A DNA stretch of 64,000 bases, taken from contig CAVWEH010000004.1 in the NCBI GenBank assembly GCA_963753975.1, positions 224,001 to 288,000 on the forward strand, read 5' to 3'. A program made the position numbers and the translations under genes. Below, piece after piece: positions 41,445 to 55,570 of the stretch; the first letter of the stretch is position 1, and each line of letters opens with the position of its first letter. The DNA comes from an uncultured delta proteobacterium. GTDB taxonomy: Bacteria; Desulfobacterota; Syntrophia; Syntrophales; Smithellaceae. Under the pieces are notes generated by a model that was not told the origin of the DNA, made no database searches, and saw only the letters and a program-made list of their open reading frames with translations.

Positions 41445-41580
41445 TTTGATTATTCTGCAATTAGTCTAGAAAAAATAGAACCGTCACCTATTAATTTCCT
41501 TGTCTGTTATCTGTTTCGCCTACTAAGTTTCAGTTTTACGTGGCTCATAAAATTGAAGATTACTGGTTGTAAGGTGCTAA
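41445..41580. repeat. Dispersed repeat, copy 1 (others at 43026-43162 and 46773-46820)
   Basis: TTTTGATTATTCTG.AA..AG.CTAGAAAAAATA.AACC.TC in all three copies; copies 1 and 2 continue TCTGTTATCTGTTTCGCCTA. Confidence 0.75.
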
Positions 41581-41671
41581 CATTTAATATACGAACTTCA
41601 CTTTCCCCTTCCCCGATGATTTGAATATCGTAAAAGAAACTATTCTACCCGTTTTCTACAATTGTATTTCC

Positions 41672-41742
41672 CAGTGGAGCCCCCTCCGGTCGCAGATGAC
41701 CTTTAGATTACCAGAGCCGGGGGATTGCAAGTAGCGGGATTA
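41672..41742. repeat. Short copy of the 22314-22430 repeat
   Basis: AGTGGAGCCCCCTCCGG...CCGGGGGATTGCAAGTAGCGGGATTA. Confidence 0.65.
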
Positions 41743-42840
41743 ATAAATAAACGTCTTAACTTCTTTCATAAACGAATATGTTGATATTTTTCCGTCTTTT
41801 GTGCGAATCTTTACGGTGTCACCCTTAAAACTGATTATTTGTCCTTCAAGGACATTCCCGTTCTGTAATTCTATTCCCTTTAGCCCCTCTATTACTTGAT
41901 AATGCTCTTCTGAATCCACTGGGCGATTTGTAACTGAGATATCCTTCTTGGGAACTTTTACTTTATCTTTGCGTAGTCGCGTACTGTTTTTGTCCTTCTT
42001 AAATTGATTTAAAAGGGCAATCACAGAATCAGCATCGCCCTCGTTATAAGTCTTCAGCAGTGAATCTCTCAAACGTCTTGGTTGTTTTTGTATCCACGCC
42101 ACAATTCTTCCTGAATCCCTTAAATTATCAAAGTCCGGATGAGCGCTTCTTATGGTATTAAGACGGTTTTCTTTAGCGATTCTTTCTAAATCTTCATTTG
42201 AGGTTGGACCAGTTGGCTGATCCGGTACCGGAGCTGGTGCAGGTGCCGGTTGAGCGACGGGTGCTTCGACTTCAGGAGTCGCTACCGATACCGGCTCTTT
42301 CATTTTGTTTAGGTTTGCAATTATGAACGGAATGCCGGCGAGTACGATAATAATTAATATATATATAATGACAGCTTTATAACTAGTTTTAGCTTTTGGC
42401 TTATTTTCTTCTATATGAGGTTTGCCAACTGCTCTTTGCTGTGGTGGTCGTCTCGAAGGAGTTTCTGCTTTTACCTTTTTTTCGTCTACGCGAGGTGTGC
42501 TAACTGTACTTTGCTGTGGTGATGGTCTCGAAAGAGTTTCTGCTTTTACCTTTTTTTCTTCCATGTGAAGTGTGCCAACTGCACTTTGCTGTGGTGACGG
42601 TCCCGAAAGGATTTCTGCTTTTACCTTTTTTTCTTCTATGGGAGGTGTGCTGACTACACTTTCCTGTGCTGATGGTCTCGGAGGTGGTTCCTCGGTCATC
42701 TTTGAAACTTCTCGCGGCGGAACTTTTTGTTCTGATATATCTTGTTTGGCAACTTTAACCGGGGGTAAGGTCATAGTGCAGTGCCAGCATTTTATTGCAT
42801 CATCTCGAAGCTCTCCATCACAGAATGGGCATATTTTCAT
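41740..42840 (-). CDS. Membrane-anchored hypothetical protein: zinc ribbon, four 25-aa repeats, TM helix, C-terminal domains
   Basis: CPFC...CWHC; repeats PSPQQS.V.T...EEKKVKAE; hydrophobic IIYILIIIVLAGIPFII. Confidence 0.8.
   Translation of the reverse strand: MKICPFCDGELRDDAIKCWHCTMTLPPVKVAKQDISEQKVPPREVSKMTEEPPPRPSAQESVVSTPPIEEKKVKAEILSGPSPQQSAVGTLHMEEKKVKAETLSRPSPQQSTVSTPRVDEKKVKAETPSRRPPQQRAVGKPHIEENKPKAKTSYKAVIIYILIIIVLAGIPFIIANLNKMKEPVSVATPEVEAPVAQPAPAPAPVPDQPTGPTSNEDLERIAKENRLNTIRSAHPDFDNLRDSGRIVAWIQKQPRRLRDSLLKTYNEGDADSVIALLNQFKKDKNSTRLRKDKVKVPKKDISVTNRPVDSEEHYQVIEGLKGIELQNGNVLEGQIISFKGDTVKIRTKDGKISTYSFMKEVKTFIY
42385..42685 (-). repeat. About four copies of a 75-bp coding tandem repeat
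   Basis: TTTCTGCTTTTACCTTTTTTTC recurs at 75-nt spacing (about 42462, 42537, 42612). Confidence 0.85.
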
Positions 42841-43025
42841 AACTGTTCCTTAAAATTAATAAATTTAGTTTTCCAGATGTGTTGAACATCATTATAGCAC
42901 ATTATTTTTTTTTAAAAAAGGAGGGAAACAGAGAATCATTTATTACGGGTTGAAATATTGTGTTAATTTGAGTGTTGAGTGATGAATTGCCCCCGACCCA
43001 TAAGTTCCTCTGCCCAATGAGATGG

Positions 43026-43162
43026 TTTTGATTATTCTGTAACAAGTCTAGAAAAAATAGAACCATCCCCAATTAATTTCTCTATCTGTTATCTGTTTCG
43101 CCTAGAAGTCTACAACTTTACGACATGAATAAAAATGAGGATTCCTGGTTGAAAGCTGTTAA
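43026..43162. repeat. Dispersed repeat, copy 2
   Basis: Aligns by eye with 41445-41580. Confidence 0.75.
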
Positions 43163-43247
43163 CGACCTAACAATACCACAGCAATAATAATTAGACTTAA
43201 AGTTATCCTTTTCATTTTTCTTACCCTTTTTAAATTGTTTTTAAATG

Positions 43248-43631
43248 TTACCAGCGCGCTTTTTCCAAGATTTCTGAATATCGTTGAAATTCTTCATCCG
43301 TTAAGTAGACGGAGTCCCATCCAAACGGTGGCAGTTGTATTTTACTACCAAGCTTGAGCTTGCTGTAATAGTTCCTGTAATAGTTCCTCGTAGTCTTGAA
43401 TGAAGTAAACTTCTTACAGTCTCTGGAAGCGATCCCATTGGAGATGTTATCTTGAGCTTCTTTTGGGAGAAACGGAATAATGTCGACATCAACCTGAGCG
43501 ACCTGGCACTGCTTCGTGAGGAATTCGACGTCCTGTTTTGTCAGTTTTGTTGGCTCTCCGGCATATACAGTGGACAGTATCACGGTTACCAGCATAAAGG
43601 ATAATAACGCTGCAAAACTCATCTTTTTCAT
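43248..43631 (-). CDS. Exported hypothetical protein
   Basis: Signal peptide ending VYA, two Cys; GGAGG RBS. Confidence 0.75.
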   Translation of the reverse strand: MKKMSFAALLSFMLVTVILSTVYAGEPTKLTKQDVEFLTKQCQVAQVDVDIIPFLPKEAQDNISNGIASRDCKKFTSFKTTRNYYRNYYSKLKLGSKIQLPPFGWDSVYLTDEEFQRYSEILEKARW

Positions 43632-43931
43632 TGTTCATTCCTCCGTTGGATAAATAAATAATAAACACGGCAGCGTTTCCTTGTCAAACGAAAAGGATTA
43701 AATAATTATTTGAAAATCGTGGCAACTTAATAATTCGGCATATTGCTAAACGGAAATGGTTTATGCAGATTCTGCATAAACAGAAAAATTATCTAATTCA
43801 AAAACTGATAATTTCTGTTGATTTCAAAAGAAAGCTACTGTAGCAACGGAACTGCTCGGCCTAACCCTTACAGGAAGAAAAGCTTACCGTTAACGCCTCC
43901 CAATTTCCTAAGAGGCAACTGCCGCTAAATT

Positions 43932-46772: not shown

Positions 46773-46820
46773 TTTTGATTATTCTGTAACTAGCCTAGAA
46801 AAAATAAAACCGTCCCTAAT
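46773..46820. repeat. Dispersed repeat, copy 3, abutting the HerA stop
   Basis: TTTTGATTATTCTGTAACTAGCCTAGAAAAAATAAAACCGTCCC. Confidence 0.7.
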
Positions 46821-46824
46821 ATTC

Positions 46825-48669
46825 TTACTTAAAGTTTGCAATATCACCATATACTTCCATAAATAAAGGTGAACCTGTAAAGGACAAAGGAGAAACCGGG
46901 CCAAAAAACATAAATGGGAATTTATTATTGCTGGCCGGGTCTATAAAAGATCGATACAGACTAATAGCAGATCCATTATTTATTAAATCACTAATTCTTC
47001 TTAAAGCTGGTCCAGAAGTCAATCCATAACCAAAACCGAAGATTCTCACCTGCTCCCAAATCTCTCTATCTAAAGATTCAATGGTTTGAGTTATAAACAT
47101 ATACCCGATACCATATTTCCTGGTTGTTCTTACGGAATCAATTATTTCTGTGGTTAGTTGGGCAATTTGGGAATCGGATGATTCTCTCGATATGAACCTG
47201 TGCGCCTCATCCATAACAATAAGACAATTTACCTTCTTGCCTTGCGCATAGAAATCTTCTCCTTTTTCTTTAATTTTGGATTCAATAATTTTGACAAACA
47301 TTGCCTGAAGATTCTCGCTTATTTCTCTTCCACCCTTTTCGCTCAAATCCAAAATGACAAAATTACCCTTCTTGTCCTCATCTGTTACGAGCCTGATAAT
47401 TGAATCTATGGACTCTTTTTTTTGGCCACTAGCTTTTCTATCTGCAAATAAGACCACCACCGGTTTCCAATACTTAACGTAAATTTCTTTCAGTTGAGTT
47501 TCGCTAGAAAGCAAAGACGTGAGATTATCAATAAGCTGATCTTTCCTCGCATTCTGAGTGTAAATCAAATTAATATATTTATTATACTCAATGTCTCTCC
47601 TCCCTCTTGCATTTTCTATTTCTCTTGTTTCTGTAAATTTTTCTAAAACGTCTTTCATGGCCTTGTAACTAAATTCATCGTCCCACATTTTCTTCAAGCT
47701 GAAACCACCCTTGCTAACTTCAGCGCGATTTTGTATGTAAATTGATACTGCTTCCGCAGCGTTATTTTCTCTATCACTCAAAATACTAAAACTCTTTTTA
47801 ATAAATTCACTTTTTTGAAGCAGAGAGCCAAATAAATCGAAAGCATCGGCAGGCAAAAACAAGTCCTCCAGAACTTTGTACTTATTATATTTCATCCCTA
47901 TTTTCTCTATCTCATCCTTGAGTTTTTTGTTTTTGGGAACAACTAGTTCGCTATCAATATAGAACTGTCCCTTGGGATCTAAGACGAGAATATTCATATT
48001 GTTTTTATTTTTTGCATATCCTAATAACATATAAACTGCTGTTACAGATTTGCCAGAACCAGTTTTTCCAAAGACCCCAATATGGTAAGCATCGCCCGCG
48101 CCAAACTCCTTATTTTTTTCGTCCGTTGCATCAAAGTGTTTAAACCAAAAGGGTAAATCAACGTCCGTACCATAAACACGTCCGATATATGTTATATGCA
48201 CTTCATTAGTTTTCATAAGGGCAGTCATAACTTCGTTATTCATTTTTTTCACTTTTTCTCCGGTGGAAGGCGAAGTTCCGAGAATATATCCTTTTGGTTC
48301 AGCCTGTCCTAAATCATAACAAGCTTGGACACTAATAGTAGCTATTCGATTGTCCGCAGCACCGCTTAAATGCGGCAATGTCCCATGTCGTTTTATAACG
48401 CCTTTAAAAGAAGGGTCTTCATGCCATCTATTTTCAGTTCTAATCGAAATTATTTGACCCATCACCAGAACATTGCGGGCATCTTCCTCGATAGCAACAT
48501 ACACCATTTGACCTAATGCCCTATCAGCCTTACTTTCTTCGGTTATATCAATAGTAATATCAATAGTCGTGCTGGGGGAACTAGTTATACCGATAACAGC
48601 TTTTTGCTGCTGAGCTTTGATGACTTCTAGAATATGATCACAAACTGACTTCTCTTGAGTACCACTCAT
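46825..48669 (-). CDS. herA: HerA/FtsK-family ATPase (HAS barrel + DUF87)
   Basis: HIGVFGKTGSGKS Walker A, VLDPKGQF, IVMDEAHRF Walker B, RKYGIG...ITQ arginine-finger motif. Confidence 0.88.
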   Translation of the reverse strand: MSGTQEKSVCDHILEVIKAQQQKAVIGITSSPSTTIDITIDITEESKADRALGQMVYVAIEEDARNVLVMGQIISIRTENRWHEDPSFKGVIKRHGTLPHLSGAADNRIATISVQACYDLGQAEPKGYILGTSPSTGEKVKKMNNEVMTALMKTNEVHITYIGRVYGTDVDLPFWFKHFDATDEKNKEFGAGDAYHIGVFGKTGSGKSVTAVYMLLGYAKNKNNMNILVLDPKGQFYIDSELVVPKNKKLKDEIEKIGMKYNKYKVLEDLFLPADAFDLFGSLLQKSEFIKKSFSILSDRENNAAEAVSIYIQNRAEVSKGGFSLKKMWDDEFSYKAMKDVLEKFTETREIENARGRRDIEYNKYINLIYTQNARKDQLIDNLTSLLSSETQLKEIYVKYWKPVVVLFADRKASGQKKESIDSIIRLVTDEDKKGNFVILDLSEKGGREISENLQAMFVKIIESKIKEKGEDFYAQGKKVNCLIVMDEAHRFISRESSDSQIAQLTTEIIDSVRTTRKYGIGYMFITQTIESLDREIWEQVRIFGFGYGLTSGPALRRISDLINNGSAISLYRSFIDPASNNKFPFMFFGPVSPLSFTGSPLFMEVYGDIANFK

Positions 48670-48687
48670 AATTCCCCCTATCTACAA

Positions 48688-49884
48688 CTATTTGGTTCGA
48701 TAGTTAAAAAGTAAATTAAACTTACCCTTATCAATTTTTAAGTCTGGTGATAATCGTACAGCTTCCTGTATAGCAAACATGCCAGTAGAAATGCCCTTAG
48801 CCATTATATCAACCAAGTACTGAGGATAAGGTTCCCTGATTTGAGGAAAAACAATTTGCTTCTTAATACTTAAAAGATATTTTTCTAGAATGGCTTTATC
48901 TAAAGCTGCTGCTTCCTTTAATTCAATACGATATGCTATACCATCAGCATAAGGCTTATAATAAGTAAAATATAGTTTTGATTTCTTGCCTTTTGTTGTT
49001 AATGGTTCAATGGCTTGCTTAAGAGCCTCATTCAGTTTGATCTTTTCGTCTATCTCTAAATTACAATTTATATGCAAATCGTTCCAAACCTTTTTTCTTT
49101 CTTCCGAACTTTGGCCGACCGAGAAAGGCGTCAAATATTCGTCCTCTTGAAGTTTTAAAGAAAAGAAAGTCCTATCATCTATTGTTATATTATGCTTCTT
49201 TAAGTAAGCATCGATGATATCCCTTGAGGAACTATATTTTACCAAAGCGATAATGTTTGGATCTCCGTTTAAAACCGAGTTAATTATGTCGGGAATATCA
49301 GGGATAATCTTTTTATAAGTTTCCCTTAAGAAATCACGCAAAGCATCAGCATACTCCTTGTCAGCCGTATTCTCATCTTTTGCTGACAGCATACTATTAA
49401 TCTTAAGGATAGGAGTAAAATGAGTACCATCCATGATTCTTATATCGTGCTTTGACGAGGCTAAGACACTTAGCTCCATCAAAAACATTACCCCTTGGGC
49501 GAGTCTAGCATTAGCTTCATTGTGTGATAAAACCGTTTGCCATTGATAATATTGATTTTTGTCTTTCCCCCAATCCTTAGATTCGTCTACCGTCAATCCT
49601 TCTACGCCAACCGCAACGGCTAAGAGTAAATCCGTACCTGTCATTCGCTCTAAAATAAAACTACCATCTACAGCGACAAGCGAAGTCGAAAAATCTGTAC
49701 CTGTTAATTTAATAATCTTGCCTGAGGTCTTAAGCTCAGCCATTCCGTTTTCAAGTGGCTCATCTTGAATATTAAACATCTTATTCATTTTATCCACCGT
49801 TAACGGCACATGCTCAAGAATCTTGGCCAGCAAGTCTTCAGGCAAATGTGCATAATTTCGGTTTCCCTCTTCAAAAGACGTCAT
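48688..49884 (-). CDS. nurA: NurA-family nuclease (RNase H fold)
   Basis: VAVDGS, MEL, IMDGT, LVK and EPYPQYLVD motifs; directly upstream of HerA. Confidence 0.82.
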   Translation of the reverse strand: MTSFEEGNRNYAHLPEDLLAKILEHVPLTVDKMNKMFNIQDEPLENGMAELKTSGKIIKLTGTDFSTSLVAVDGSFILERMTGTDLLLAVAVGVEGLTVDESKDWGKDKNQYYQWQTVLSHNEANARLAQGVMFLMELSVLASSKHDIRIMDGTHFTPILKINSMLSAKDENTADKEYADALRDFLRETYKKIIPDIPDIINSVLNGDPNIIALVKYSSSRDIIDAYLKKHNITIDDRTFFSLKLQEDEYLTPFSVGQSSEERKKVWNDLHINCNLEIDEKIKLNEALKQAIEPLTTKGKKSKLYFTYYKPYADGIAYRIELKEAAALDKAILEKYLLSIKKQIVFPQIREPYPQYLVDIMAKGISTGMFAIQEAVRLSPDLKIDKGKFNLLFNYRTK

Positions 49885-49885
49885 A

Positions 49886-51046
49886 TTATTTTACCGCTCG
49901 CAATTTTTTAGGTTTGTCAATTTTTGAACTAACATCCTCAAAAAAACATAAAGCATTAAAATTTTTATATGTTAAATCCTTCTCACTTTTTGGTATTGCC
50001 CATCTTTGTTTCCAATAGGCTGTTAAGTCATCAATAGTATGATGATACCATTTAGGTCTTGCATTCTTTTTGATTACGTCAGATAAGTTTTTCACAAAAG
50101 GAAAGAGATACACAGCTCTCCTTATACCATGTGTTGAGCCATTTTCGAAGCCTAACAGATTTAAAGCTTGTGATATCAACCGCAACTTCCTAGAAGGACC
50201 ACTACCGTAACCTCTTCGTACATCATATCCTTTTGAATCTAAGAACATTACTAGTTTATCAAATATATCATTTGAAATATGAAACGAGCCGCTTCCATGT
50301 GAATAGCCAATAAATTTTGCAACATATTCTGTGTTATATTTCAGGCGTGTATAAACACTGCTTTTCCCATATGCACCTGTTGTTGTTATGAATAGTAGTC
50401 TGGGTGGCAAATCTCTTTTTTGCAGAACTGTTTGGACATCAGCATATTTTTGTGCATATTTTCGTCTTATTAAATCAGCGCCTACAAGGTAGGCTACTAA
50501 TTTACCGCCCAATATACTATTATATGGCGGTACGGCACCTAGGCGCTGTGCGCTTAAAGACTGATTAACCCAGTAATCTCGAGTATCCGCAGGAATACCT
50601 AAATGTTTGTCTCTGACACTCCAGCTTAAAATTGGACTTTGCAGTCCAATTAATCCAATAATTGATTTGTGATGTTGATCCCATACTATATAACGCATTT
50701 GCCTTCCATAAGCACGTTCATATGGCAAGCTCCACCAAACGAGATTCCACCACCGGAACAAAACTTCCCATTCTGTATCTGGCAATACCTCTATAAGACG
50801 TGGTTTAATTTTTCGTACGTCTATATTGTTACCATCAATCAAGTATTTTTTAGCTATTTTAGTACTTCTTGAAATGAAATCTTTTCGTTTCTCAATACGT
50901 TCTTCTTTTGCCAAATCATGGACCGAGCGCTTTGTATCGTGATCCATAACAGCTAACGAAAATTGATTTTTTTTAACTTCATATCCTTGTTTTTTAAGTA
51001 TCTTTCTAATCTCTTTTTTTAATTTTGCTTGATCAATAGTTTTCAT
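49886..51046 (-). CDS. DUF4338 / Druantia DruA-like protein
   Basis: WSLPY...GRQMRYIVWD...IGLIGL.SP, RD, LGAVPPYNSILGGKLVA, ITTTGAYGKSSVY.RL, GYS.GSG.FH. Confidence 0.8.
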   Translation of the reverse strand: MKTIDQAKLKKEIRKILKKQGYEVKKNQFSLAVMDHDTKRSVHDLAKEERIEKRKDFISRSTKIAKKYLIDGNNIDVRKIKPRLIEVLPDTEWEVLFRWWNLVWWSLPYERAYGRQMRYIVWDQHHKSIIGLIGLQSPILSWSVRDKHLGIPADTRDYWVNQSLSAQRLGAVPPYNSILGGKLVAYLVGADLIRRKYAQKYADVQTVLQKRDLPPRLLFITTTGAYGKSSVYTRLKYNTEYVAKFIGYSHGSGSFHISNDIFDKLVMFLDSKGYDVRRGYGSGPSRKLRLISQALNLLGFENGSTHGIRRAVYLFPFVKNLSDVIKKNARPKWYHHTIDDLTAYWKQRWAIPKSEKDLTYKNFNALCFFEDVSSKIDKPKKLRAVK

Positions 51047-51237
51047 GATTGAAGTGATTTAAGACAATCGTATTATTTACTTATGTAGGATACTAAGGAC
51101 AGCGCCCAATTACTAAATTGGAGCTTTGCGAATATTACGCTTTCTTAAAAAAAGCGCAAGAAAAAACATGTAGTTGAATAAGACAGAGGCGAGGGGCACG
51201 TAGCACGGGACAAGCGCAAATACCCGCGGAAGAAAAT

Positions 51238-54768: not shown

Positions 54769-55570
54769 CTAATCGGTTTTCTTCTTAACCTCCGCCACGA
54801 TTTTCGGCAAAATAGTGCCGGTCTTTCCCTGGATCAGATAATCGGATATGCCCTCTTCTGTCAGCGGAGTGCGATCAGCATTGATTTCAACGATAATTGT
54901 TTTTTGTTTAGATTGATACTGTTTGGCCATCCTGGGCAGCATGGCAAAAGGATGAACTACCGCCGACGTCCCGCAAATCAGCATCAGATCACATTTTCCC
55001 ACCTCTGCCTGGCTTTCCTGGGCGACGTCTGCGGGAATGGCCTCATTAAAATGGACGACATCCGACTTCAGAACGCCATTGCATTTTCGGCATAAAGGCG
55101 GCAAGCGATCTTCCGCCAATAACCGATCCAGCTCGAATTCCGTCGGGATCAAACCGGGAATCGCATTCAAAACATCTGAGCAATGAAATATTTCCGTGAT
55201 AATCCAGAACTCTCTTGCTGCCCGCTTTCTGGTGCAGGTTATCAATATTCTGGGTGACTACACATTTCAGAAGTGCCATCTTCTCCAATTCGGCCAGGGC
55301 AAAATGCCCGGGATTAGGGAGGGCATTAATCAAATCTCCCATCCATGATGTGCCGGTCATTCGCTCTATCCAGTATTCTTTGGGGTTTTGTTGAAACTTG
55401 AAATAACTCTGATAGGCCTTTCTTTCGGCAGCGGGATTTTTCGTCCAGATCCCGTTTGGTCCCCGAAAATCAGGGATTCCCGATTCGGTGGACATGCCTG
55501 CTCCGGTCAACCCGACGGCATGTTTGCTTTTGATTAACAGCTCGGCTGCTTTGGAAATTAATTCTTCCAT
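54769..55570 (-). pseudogene. cobB: CobB/Sir2 NAD-dependent protein deacylase, frameshifted
   Basis: TGAGMSTESGIPDFRG, TQNIDNLH, HGN, two CxxC, GTSAVVHP; one extra base at 55145-55147. Confidence 0.85.

Follow-up and report, generated by a model that had tools for sequence, protein, structure and literature searches.

Type I Druantia (DruABCDE) is a five-gene system that is reported to add a DNA mark without a methylase domain, and druA is its signature first gene. One preprint, in the sections concerned, finds that E. coli has PacBio 'm6A' calls at CAGCTGNC only when it carries Druantia type I and stresses that this system has no methylase domain (10.1101/2024.04.14.589459). Two 2026 preprints, in the passages concerned, cite that result as host-genome modification by type I Druantia. 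Our literature search found nothing on the mechanism of DruB, DruC or DruD and no paper tying Druantia to the GNAT superfamily. Here we analyse a druA gene and its two partner genes, nurA and herA, in a 64,000-nucleotide stretch of DNA from an uncultured delta proteobacterium of the Smithellaceae (assembly GCA_963753975.1, contig CAVWEH010000004.1, positions 224,001 to 288,000), which is referred to as the window. The DruA family is common to the window and type I Druantia over its full length, and the DruA of one type I Druantia locus (L123 from IMG/VR, DruD 9.4e-103) aligns with the window DruA with the core motifs kept. Different from Druantia, the window has no DruB, DruC, DruD or DruE (PADLOC finds no Dru protein besides DruA among seven open reading frames (ORFs) of the locus), and the partners of DruA are NurA and HerA. 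The three-gene cassette is far simpler than Druantia for studying DruA, and it pairs DruA with a type of nuclease and motor for which archaeal and bacterial structures have been solved. No paper naming a DruA-NurA-HerA cassette was found in the literature search.

Other described systems resemble parts of the locus. In DndF and SspF proteins that carry an N-terminal DUF4338 (DruA) domain, the domain precedes a restriction machine with nucleoside triphosphatase (NTPase) and nuclease activities (relevant part of PMC10853773); one such fusion, at locus L128, matches the PADLOC models of DruA (1.5e-122) and SspF (1.6e-16). In contrast, the window DruA is encoded on its own and is partnered by NurA-HerA. 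TdpABC has the same three-gene logic of one modifier plus a restriction pair, and tdpC alone makes its phosphorothioate mark (relevant part of PMC12914056); the candidate modifier of the window is a predicted GNAT and not a phosphorothioation enzyme. The NurA and HerA of the window resemble the archaeal and bacterial HerA-NurA complex for DNA-end resection, but they are encoded on a mobile island together with DruA instead of with mre11-rad50, and their relatives are scattered across phyla.

The first-pass annotation of the window had proposed that DruA might be a self-marking enzyme that stands in for a methyltransferase. We tentatively read DruA as an active, DNA-directed GNAT whose mark gates HerA-NurA, a reading that we hold to be possible rather than probable. 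Specifically, DruA would be a catalytically active transferase that puts a non-methyl group on bases of the resident DNA, the simplest adduct being a Mom-like acyl or aminoacyl group at N6 of adenine. DNA that is unmarked or not yet marked would be degraded by HerA-NurA, in which a ring translocase feeds a nuclease. We infer all of its elements, namely the catalysis, the DNA substrate, the donor (acyl coenzyme A (CoA) or aminoacyl-tRNA) and the gating of the nuclease by the mark. If DruA does write a non-methyl mark, it would be the first GNAT-class enzyme of cellular origin that marks self DNA, and several defence systems that share DruA would have a common logic. If it writes none, the joins to Type I, IIG and III operons described below would point to a possible bolt-on module that degrades restricted DNA.

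The DruA-NurA-HerA operon

The druA product scores 211.6 bits against PF14236 (DruA), above the Pfam gathering cut-off of 27 (E 1.8e-62), and covers most of that model (profile positions 7-295 of 297). PADLOC assigns it to DruA1 with 3.1e-86 over residues 5-372. As the first-pass annotation had it, druA is the first gene of the operon and its product is basic. The three genes follow each other tightly on the minus strand, with one base between the druA stop and the nurA start and 18 bases between nurA and herA, and each of the three proteins is as long as its relatives. DruA has an isoelectric point (pI) of 9.97 and contains 71 lysines plus arginines versus 38 aspartates plus glutamates, the basic character extending throughout the protein. 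The pI values of NurA and HerA are 5.8 and 6.5, respectively.

The two partners have the features expected of a HerA-NurA pair, namely the NurA fold, the conserved acidic residues and a P-loop with Walker A and B motifs. The NurA model has a predicted local distance difference test score (pLDDT) of 86. Its top Foldseek match is Sulfolobus NurA (2ygk, 3.5e-11), and the best nuclease matches are 2ygk, 9x1m and 3tal. The NurA model also matches chain G of 8wfd, the entry of TdpAB bound to DNA, but at rank 11 with 5.3e-5, so that the archaeal NurA structures are far better matches. At the sequence level, NurA matches no sequence of a solved structure, and HerA has one weak match (8wiv, 8.9e-4). 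The residues invariant in the alignment of the NurA clade are all present in the window NurA. HerA has a Walker A motif at residue 201 (GKTGSGKS) and a Walker B-like motif at residue 483 (LIVMDE). Hence, the ATPase motifs of HerA are intact and the clade-invariant residues of NurA are kept.

Predicted fold and conserved segments of DruA

The AlphaFold2 model of DruA was built from a 42-sequence alignment and has a pLDDT of 84 and a predicted template modelling score of 0.83. The model was compared by VIA-align with 48,161 representative PDB chains, and the best 50 rows were considered. All 50 are GNAT-superfamily chains, with Z between 8.8 and 10.0 over DruA residues 76-336. Models without a clear match have a best Z of 7-8 in this search, dropping to 4-5 by rank 50. 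The DruA values lie above this background, which argues that GNAT is a real fold assignment. Phage Mu Mom (8bv8) is joint first with a Z of 10.0, a root mean square deviation of 4.0 and 171 residues aligned. Re-scoring of the Foldseek candidates gives Z values up to 10.6; Mom is second there with 10.5 and 179 residues aligned, and differs from many ordinary GNATs by no more than one Z unit. Foldseek itself gives no match to the DruA model at E<=1e-3, and its weak rows, among them Mom and the RNA cytidine acetyltransferase NAT10, are all GNATs. A search of the DruA profile against the sequences of solved structures returned nothing meaningful (best E 0.97), and the ESM Atlas gave a sub-threshold lead only, to a 'GNAT-phage-like' cluster with a score of 0.82. 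The core of DruA is thus predicted to adopt a GNAT (acyl/aminoacyl-transferase) fold, as the first-pass annotation had suspected, and two extra helices (259-271 and 284-297) precede the last core strand of the model. A GNAT assignment of DUF4338 has already been published for the domain fused to some DndF proteins (relevant part of PMC10853773, NAR 2024).

The first-pass annotation had likened the spacing of two DruA segments, LGAVPPYNSILGGKLV and TTTGAYGKSSVY, to that of GNAT/Mom-like acyl-CoA-binding motifs. The segments start 52 residues apart, and few stretches of the family are as well conserved. Their proposed likeness to GNAT motifs holds as to position: in the model, LGAVPPYNSILGGKLV runs from the end of a strand (163-171) into a helix (175-188), and TTTGAYGKSSVY overlaps a strand at 219-223. 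A specific sequence relationship to Mom is not supported, as detailed below. The canonical acyl-CoA pyrophosphate-binding motif of GNATs is Q/R-x-x-G-x-G/A, at the junction of strand 4 and helix 3. The corresponding junction of DruA, PPYNSILGGK, is glycine-rich and conserved and fits this motif inexactly. Gly170, Pro173, Pro174, Tyr175, and Lys182 of LGAVPPYNSILGGKLV are conserved family-wide, and Gly227, Ser229, and Tyr232 of TTTGAYGKSSVY are at least 90% conserved among 79 diverse family members. Thr221 and Lys182 are retained in 12 members of differing gene contexts, including a lytic-phage copy. The enzyme-like pattern of conservation holds both over the 79 diverse members and over gene contexts. 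Judged from these alignments, the strong family-wide conservation around the GNAT active-site region suggests catalysis.

A GNAT fold also serves enzymes with targets other than DNA, and the VIA-align rows of DruA include a tRNA-acetylating GNAT toxin (7byy, Z 8.8) and FemA (1lrz, Z 8.9). Like TacT, AtaT or the DUF4338 domain of DndF, DruA might work as an effector or co-effector by acylating an aminoacyl-tRNA or a protein, and thereby shut down the infected cell or inactivate a phage anti-nuclease protein. Characterised GNATs mostly act on proteins or small molecules, and the DUF4338 GNAT is listed among the N-terminal co-effector domains of DndF, for which protein targets are suggested (relevant part of PMC10853773). 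However, an antitoxin-like partner is not conserved, the operon partners are DNA enzymes, and DruA itself, at 386 residues, is basic throughout and has DNA-related fusions. We consider an effector of this kind unlikely.

Linkage of DruA with NurA-HerA and with restriction-modification operons

DruA has 1831 homologues at E<=1e-3, and the 119 listed share 55-71% identity and come from many phyla. A DruA-seeded scan with one genome per species yielded 31 loci (numbered, like those below, with the prefix L). DruA, NurA, and HerA stand in this order in 21 of them (tblastn), and in three more NurA follows DruA before the contig ends, so that DruA adjoins NurA in 24 of 31. The contig ends at DruA in three loci, DruA is a fragment in one, and an ORC/Cdc6-like ATPase, once with a kinase domain, takes the place of NurA-HerA in the other three. 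The reverse scan of metagenomes, seeded with NurA only, gave 80 loci whose NurA identity ranges between 76% and 30%. Of these, 69 contain DruA (67 detected by tblastn and two by Pfam). Ten of the 11 loci without DruA are cut less than 600 bases upstream of NurA; the remaining one, L064, has 2.6 kb upstream of NurA without DruA, and its contig ends inside HerA. The gene order is mostly DruA-NurA-HerA, with NurA-HerA-DruA in L081-L085 and a convergent DruA in L108 and L111. DruA is the obligate partner of this NurA-HerA clade, and the cassette is horizontally mobile.

A protein with HTH_3 and Peptidase_M78 domains (ImmA/IrrE-like) is a recurrent neighbour of the cassette, or an insert in it: in L107 and L110 its gene is inserted into the cassette. 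This protein may be a damage- or infection-responsive regulator.

We then inspected the genes that flank the cassette. A methylase or Type I restriction-modification (R-M) gene lies within three ORFs in seven of the 24 genome loci with NurA (L002, L005, L007, L010-L012, and L020) and in the flanks of 17 of the 50 metagenome loci scanned. The metagenome flank scan covered 121 of 140 ORFs by Pfam; it left out L058, L095, L096, and L097 as near-duplicates of retained loci, as well as two ORFs on the upstream side of L057 and some that an earlier Pfam scan had covered. The adjoining R-M systems are complete and comprise Type I HsdR/M/S, Type ISP/IIG, Type III Mod plus Res, and a PLD-SNF2 helicase with a Type IIG-like methylase. 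The cassette is repeatedly joined to the 3' end of these unrelated operon types, with stop and start codons overlapping or almost touching. In a divergent subclade (NurA at ~34% identity), a Type IIG restriction-methylase of ~1056 residues follows herA as the fourth gene of the operon, starting 8 to ~30 bases past herA or overlapping its end; PADLOC calls it REase_MTase_IIG with 1e-212 in L094 and L101. The repeated joining to R-M operons suggests a bolt-on module that works with restriction.

These neighbours bear on the idea that DruA replaces a methylase. In the window itself, no DNA methyltransferase is found among the 17 ORFs around the cassette (Pfam), in agreement with the first-pass annotation, which had noted none next to the nuclease. 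In the 2.43-Mb assembly (95% complete), the only strong N6_Mtase match is on a different contig, and N6_N4 and C5 methylases have no match. Among relatives, the picture is different from the one proposed. If DruA stood in for a methyltransferase, the two should exclude each other upstream of this NurA-HerA clade; instead, no locus has a methylase in DruA's place, DruA is effectively always there (69 of the 80 metagenome loci), and R-M genes often adjoin it. Substitution of a methylase for DruA in relatives was hence rejected, and in the comparative sense the notion of a stand-in is not borne out. The adjacency of NurA-HerA pairs and methylases, which the first-pass annotation had mentioned, does exist in that DruA-bearing relatives often abut R-M genes, but in a sense that differs from the intended one. 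The adjoining methylases belong to their own restriction enzymes, and so they do not show that NurA-HerA reads methylation.

Appending one cassette to varied R-M operons fits a module acting downstream of DNA cleavage. DruA might accordingly be a sensor or adaptor that licenses HerA-NurA on binding to DNA ends, to phage DNA or to a phage protein. HerA-NurA would need free ends, so that the circular chromosome would be spared even if unmarked, and the GNAT fold would serve binding or regulatory acylation. The Type I, Type IIG/ISP, Type III and PLD-SNF2 systems to which the cassette is appended have unrelated specificities, and among solved structures the NurA model is closest to the archaeal NurA proteins of end resection. 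Besides NurA-HerA, DruA pairs with at least four other NTPase back ends: DruB-E, an ORC/Cdc6-like kinase-ATPase with a CARF-like protein, the SspF/DndF fusion, and a Zot-like ATPase. A variable target-recognition region is not seen in cassette DruAs, which also suits an adaptor. On the other hand, an adaptor makes the solitary DruA of a lytic phage and of other viral contigs hard to explain, sits poorly with the family-wide conservation near the GNAT active-site region, which suggests catalysis, and leaves the modification in methylase-less Druantia I unexplained. We regard a sensor or adaptor as doubtful, if a serious candidate.

DruA in viruses, fusions, and other modules

Some viruses have DruA but neither NurA nor HerA. 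In the T4-like Pelagibacter phage Mosig (MT647606), which is lytic and has been cultured, a 432-residue DUF4338 protein (L134:5551-6846; PF14236 1.8e-22) is encoded among genes for MazG, a 2OG-Fe(II) oxygenase and recombination nucleases, and this copy keeps Gly114, Arg115, Lys182, Tyr201, Thr221, Gly247, and Gly251. Two IMG/VR contigs have DruA between primase and terminase genes (L118) and next to a dATP/dGTP diphosphohydrolase gene (L117), respectively. The best viral structural matches to DruA are giant-virus proteins, with E down to 4e-15. A modifier on its own would be useful to a virus, but an adaptor for an absent nuclease would not; the solitary viral copies therefore favour marking.

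The closest of these structural matches, in BFVD, are A0A3G4ZXG3, A0A5K0UAJ3, and A0A3G4ZRA1 of the Klosneuvirus group (E 4e-15 to 1e-9), two of which exceed 1100 residues.

The viral copies also raise the question of whose DNA would be marked. DruA might act on the invader: by marking phage DNA as it enters or replicates, or by marking the nucleotide pool, it would recruit HerA-NurA or block replication. The arguments for a nucleic-acid-directed GNAT apply here as they do to self-marking. In addition, two viral contexts have MazG or dATP/dGTP diphosphohydrolase genes next to DruA, and methylases of co-resident R-M systems would not be redundant with a mark on the invader. However, the Druantia I motif is reported on the host genome without infection (sections concerned of 10.1101/2024.04.14.589459), and a mechanism that separates foreign from self DNA is not evident. 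Marking of the invader appears highly unlikely to us, and we return to marking of resident DNA below.

Fusions of DruA are found with an insertion sequence (IS)-type helix-turn-helix domain, with ParB_N plus an N6_N4 methylase (in one family representative), and with SspF/DndF. Among the modules with other ATPases, the ORC/Cdc6-like protein of L025 contains a kinase domain (PADLOC CARF_STK_AAA) and is followed by a CARF-like protein. A short IMG/VR contig (L114:3-4354) encodes a DruA relative of 49% identity and then, in place of NurA-HerA, the product of an unassigned 411-residue ORF and a full-length Zot-like P-loop ATPase.

A possible DNA-marking role for DruA and the comparison with Mom

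Mom (PF25680, 8bv8) is a phage counter-defence enzyme. It takes its donor group, glycine, from Gly-tRNA and not from acyl-CoA, its target is N6 of adenine in double-stranded DNA, and it requires a helix-turn-helix-like insertion together with Arg111, Ser124, Asp149, and Arg151 (relevant part of PMC13219725). As Mom uses tRNA instead of CoA, the donor of a GNAT need not be CoA. DruA resembles Mom in the predicted GNAT fold and, in the model, in having extra helices late in the fold. Of the single-domain GNAT chains in the match list, Mom gives the longest alignment with DruA (171-179 residues, Z 10.0-10.5). The two differ in length (231 residues in Mom versus 386 in DruA), and no sequence relationship between them is detectable. 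In Pfam at E<=10, the window DruA matches DruA only and not PF25680, to which Mu Mom as a control matches with 2.1e-75. The alignment of DruA with Mu Mom alone by hhalign gave probabilities of 0.6% and 0.2% for two DruA alignments. We rejected a specific sequence kinship of DruA and Mom on these grounds, all hhalign probabilities being below 1% (0.19-0.6%) and PF25680 being unmatched. Two look-alike motifs, W-[SG]-x-G-R-R and G-R-x-[SG]-x-Y-[NQ], were noticed by eye at roughly matching places in the two proteins; they were not used because the statistics give no support.

A DNA-marking role for DruA is plausible without such kinship. That methylase-less Druantia I yields an 'm6A' motif leaves room for a non-methyl DNA mark. 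The nucleic-acid context of DruA, with its pI of 9.97 and its DNA-related fusions, counts for a DNA-directed protein. The precedent of TdpABC, in which a single modification gene can govern a restriction pair, keeps the idea of marking alive, and so does the position of DruA at the head of varied NTPase modules, like that of methylases in R-M, BREX and DISARM.

Several findings weigh against marking of resident DNA by DruA. The PacBio result comes from one preprint, and the mark is not assigned to DruA. DUF4338 has been interpreted in print as a co-effector that may act on proteins (relevant part of PMC10853773). The R-M genes next to the cassette are usually co-oriented with druA and overlap it or lie within ~30 bases, and a second self-mark beside R-M systems with their own methylases looks redundant. 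A hypervariable target-recognition region is not seen among the cassette DruAs, whose least conserved stretches still average 0.46-0.6 column identity. Finally, Mom is one of many tied structural matches and not a distinct one, and hhalign of 79 DruA sequences against 50 Mom sequences gave a probability of 0.19% (E 0.31). A particular kinship to Mom is thus not borne out.

A wider form of the proposal is that DruA is the host counterpart of Mom: a non-methyl mark on N6 of adenine or on another base would be the self signal of type I Druantia, DruA-NurA-HerA and other DruA modules and would account for the 'm6A' motif of methylase-less Druantia I, and viruses would have captured solitary DruA to forge that mark. 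We consider this wider form rather unlikely.

Genomic surroundings and feature coordinates

The coordinates of the features are collected in Table 1. Positions in the window are given with strand, and features of other loci are given by locus number.

Table 1. Features of the druA locus in the window and of related loci
Feature	Position	Strand	Remarks
druA	49886..51046	-	open on the minus strand only; 386 residues; DruA/DUF4338; operon gene 1
GNAT-fold core of DruA (predicted)	50039..50821	-	residues ~76-336; AlphaFold2 model and VIA-align
LGAVPPYNSILGGKLV	50495..50542	-	residues 169-184; end of strand 4 to start of helix 3, position of GNAT motif A
TTTGAYGKSSVY	50351..50386	-	residues 221-232; strand 5 with the loop that follows, region of GNAT motif B
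nurA-like nuclease gene	48688..49884	-	398 residues; PF09376 4.5e-6
herA-like ATPase gene	46825..48669	-	614 residues; DUF87 6.8e-11; PADLOC mad8 5.9e-15 and HerA models
Low-GC island (the three genes)	46800..51100	.	guanine-plus-cytosine (GC) content 0.35-0.37 versus ~0.50 in both flanks
Intergenic leader 5' of druA	51047..51237	-	191 bases from the end of the SDR gene to the druA start; likely promoter region
HTH_3 + Peptidase_M78 genes	L024:2224-3381, L031:6149-7396, L046:2517-3764, L107:3757-4965, L110:3841-5016, L108:1-504, L111:2-1384		
Type I joins	L002, L038, L041, L059, L116		
Type IIG/ISP joins	L042, L053, L055, L075, L010-L012		
Type III joins	L054, L120, L122, L125		
Type IIG four-gene loci	L087, L091, L094 (3787-11035), L099, L101, L102, L112, L124		
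DruA with ORC/Cdc6-like ATPase	L025:7977-12826, L027:8001-11516, L028		

The neighbours of the cassette are housekeeping genes (SDR, PAC2, FMN reductase, and hydrolases; Pfam). In the leader upstream of druA, no promoter-like site was found on the druA strand; the single site, at 51049-51076, is on the opposite strand, and the sites of the promoter and terminator scan are no more numerous than in shuffled sequence.

An outer-membrane beta-barrel gene in the window suggests a diderm bacterium; a search of the genome for bacterial SSU rRNA returned no match. A second low-GC stretch lies at 41500-43900 of the window (GC 0.37-0.41) and contains two minus-strand ORFs, 41740-42840 (366 residues) and 43248-43631 (127 residues), neither of which has a Pfam match. 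At 54769-55570, an ORF of the Sir2 family has only 174 residues, matches profile positions 1-121 of 180 and overlaps a 158-residue ORF on the same strand; this deacetylase gene may be split or frameshifted.

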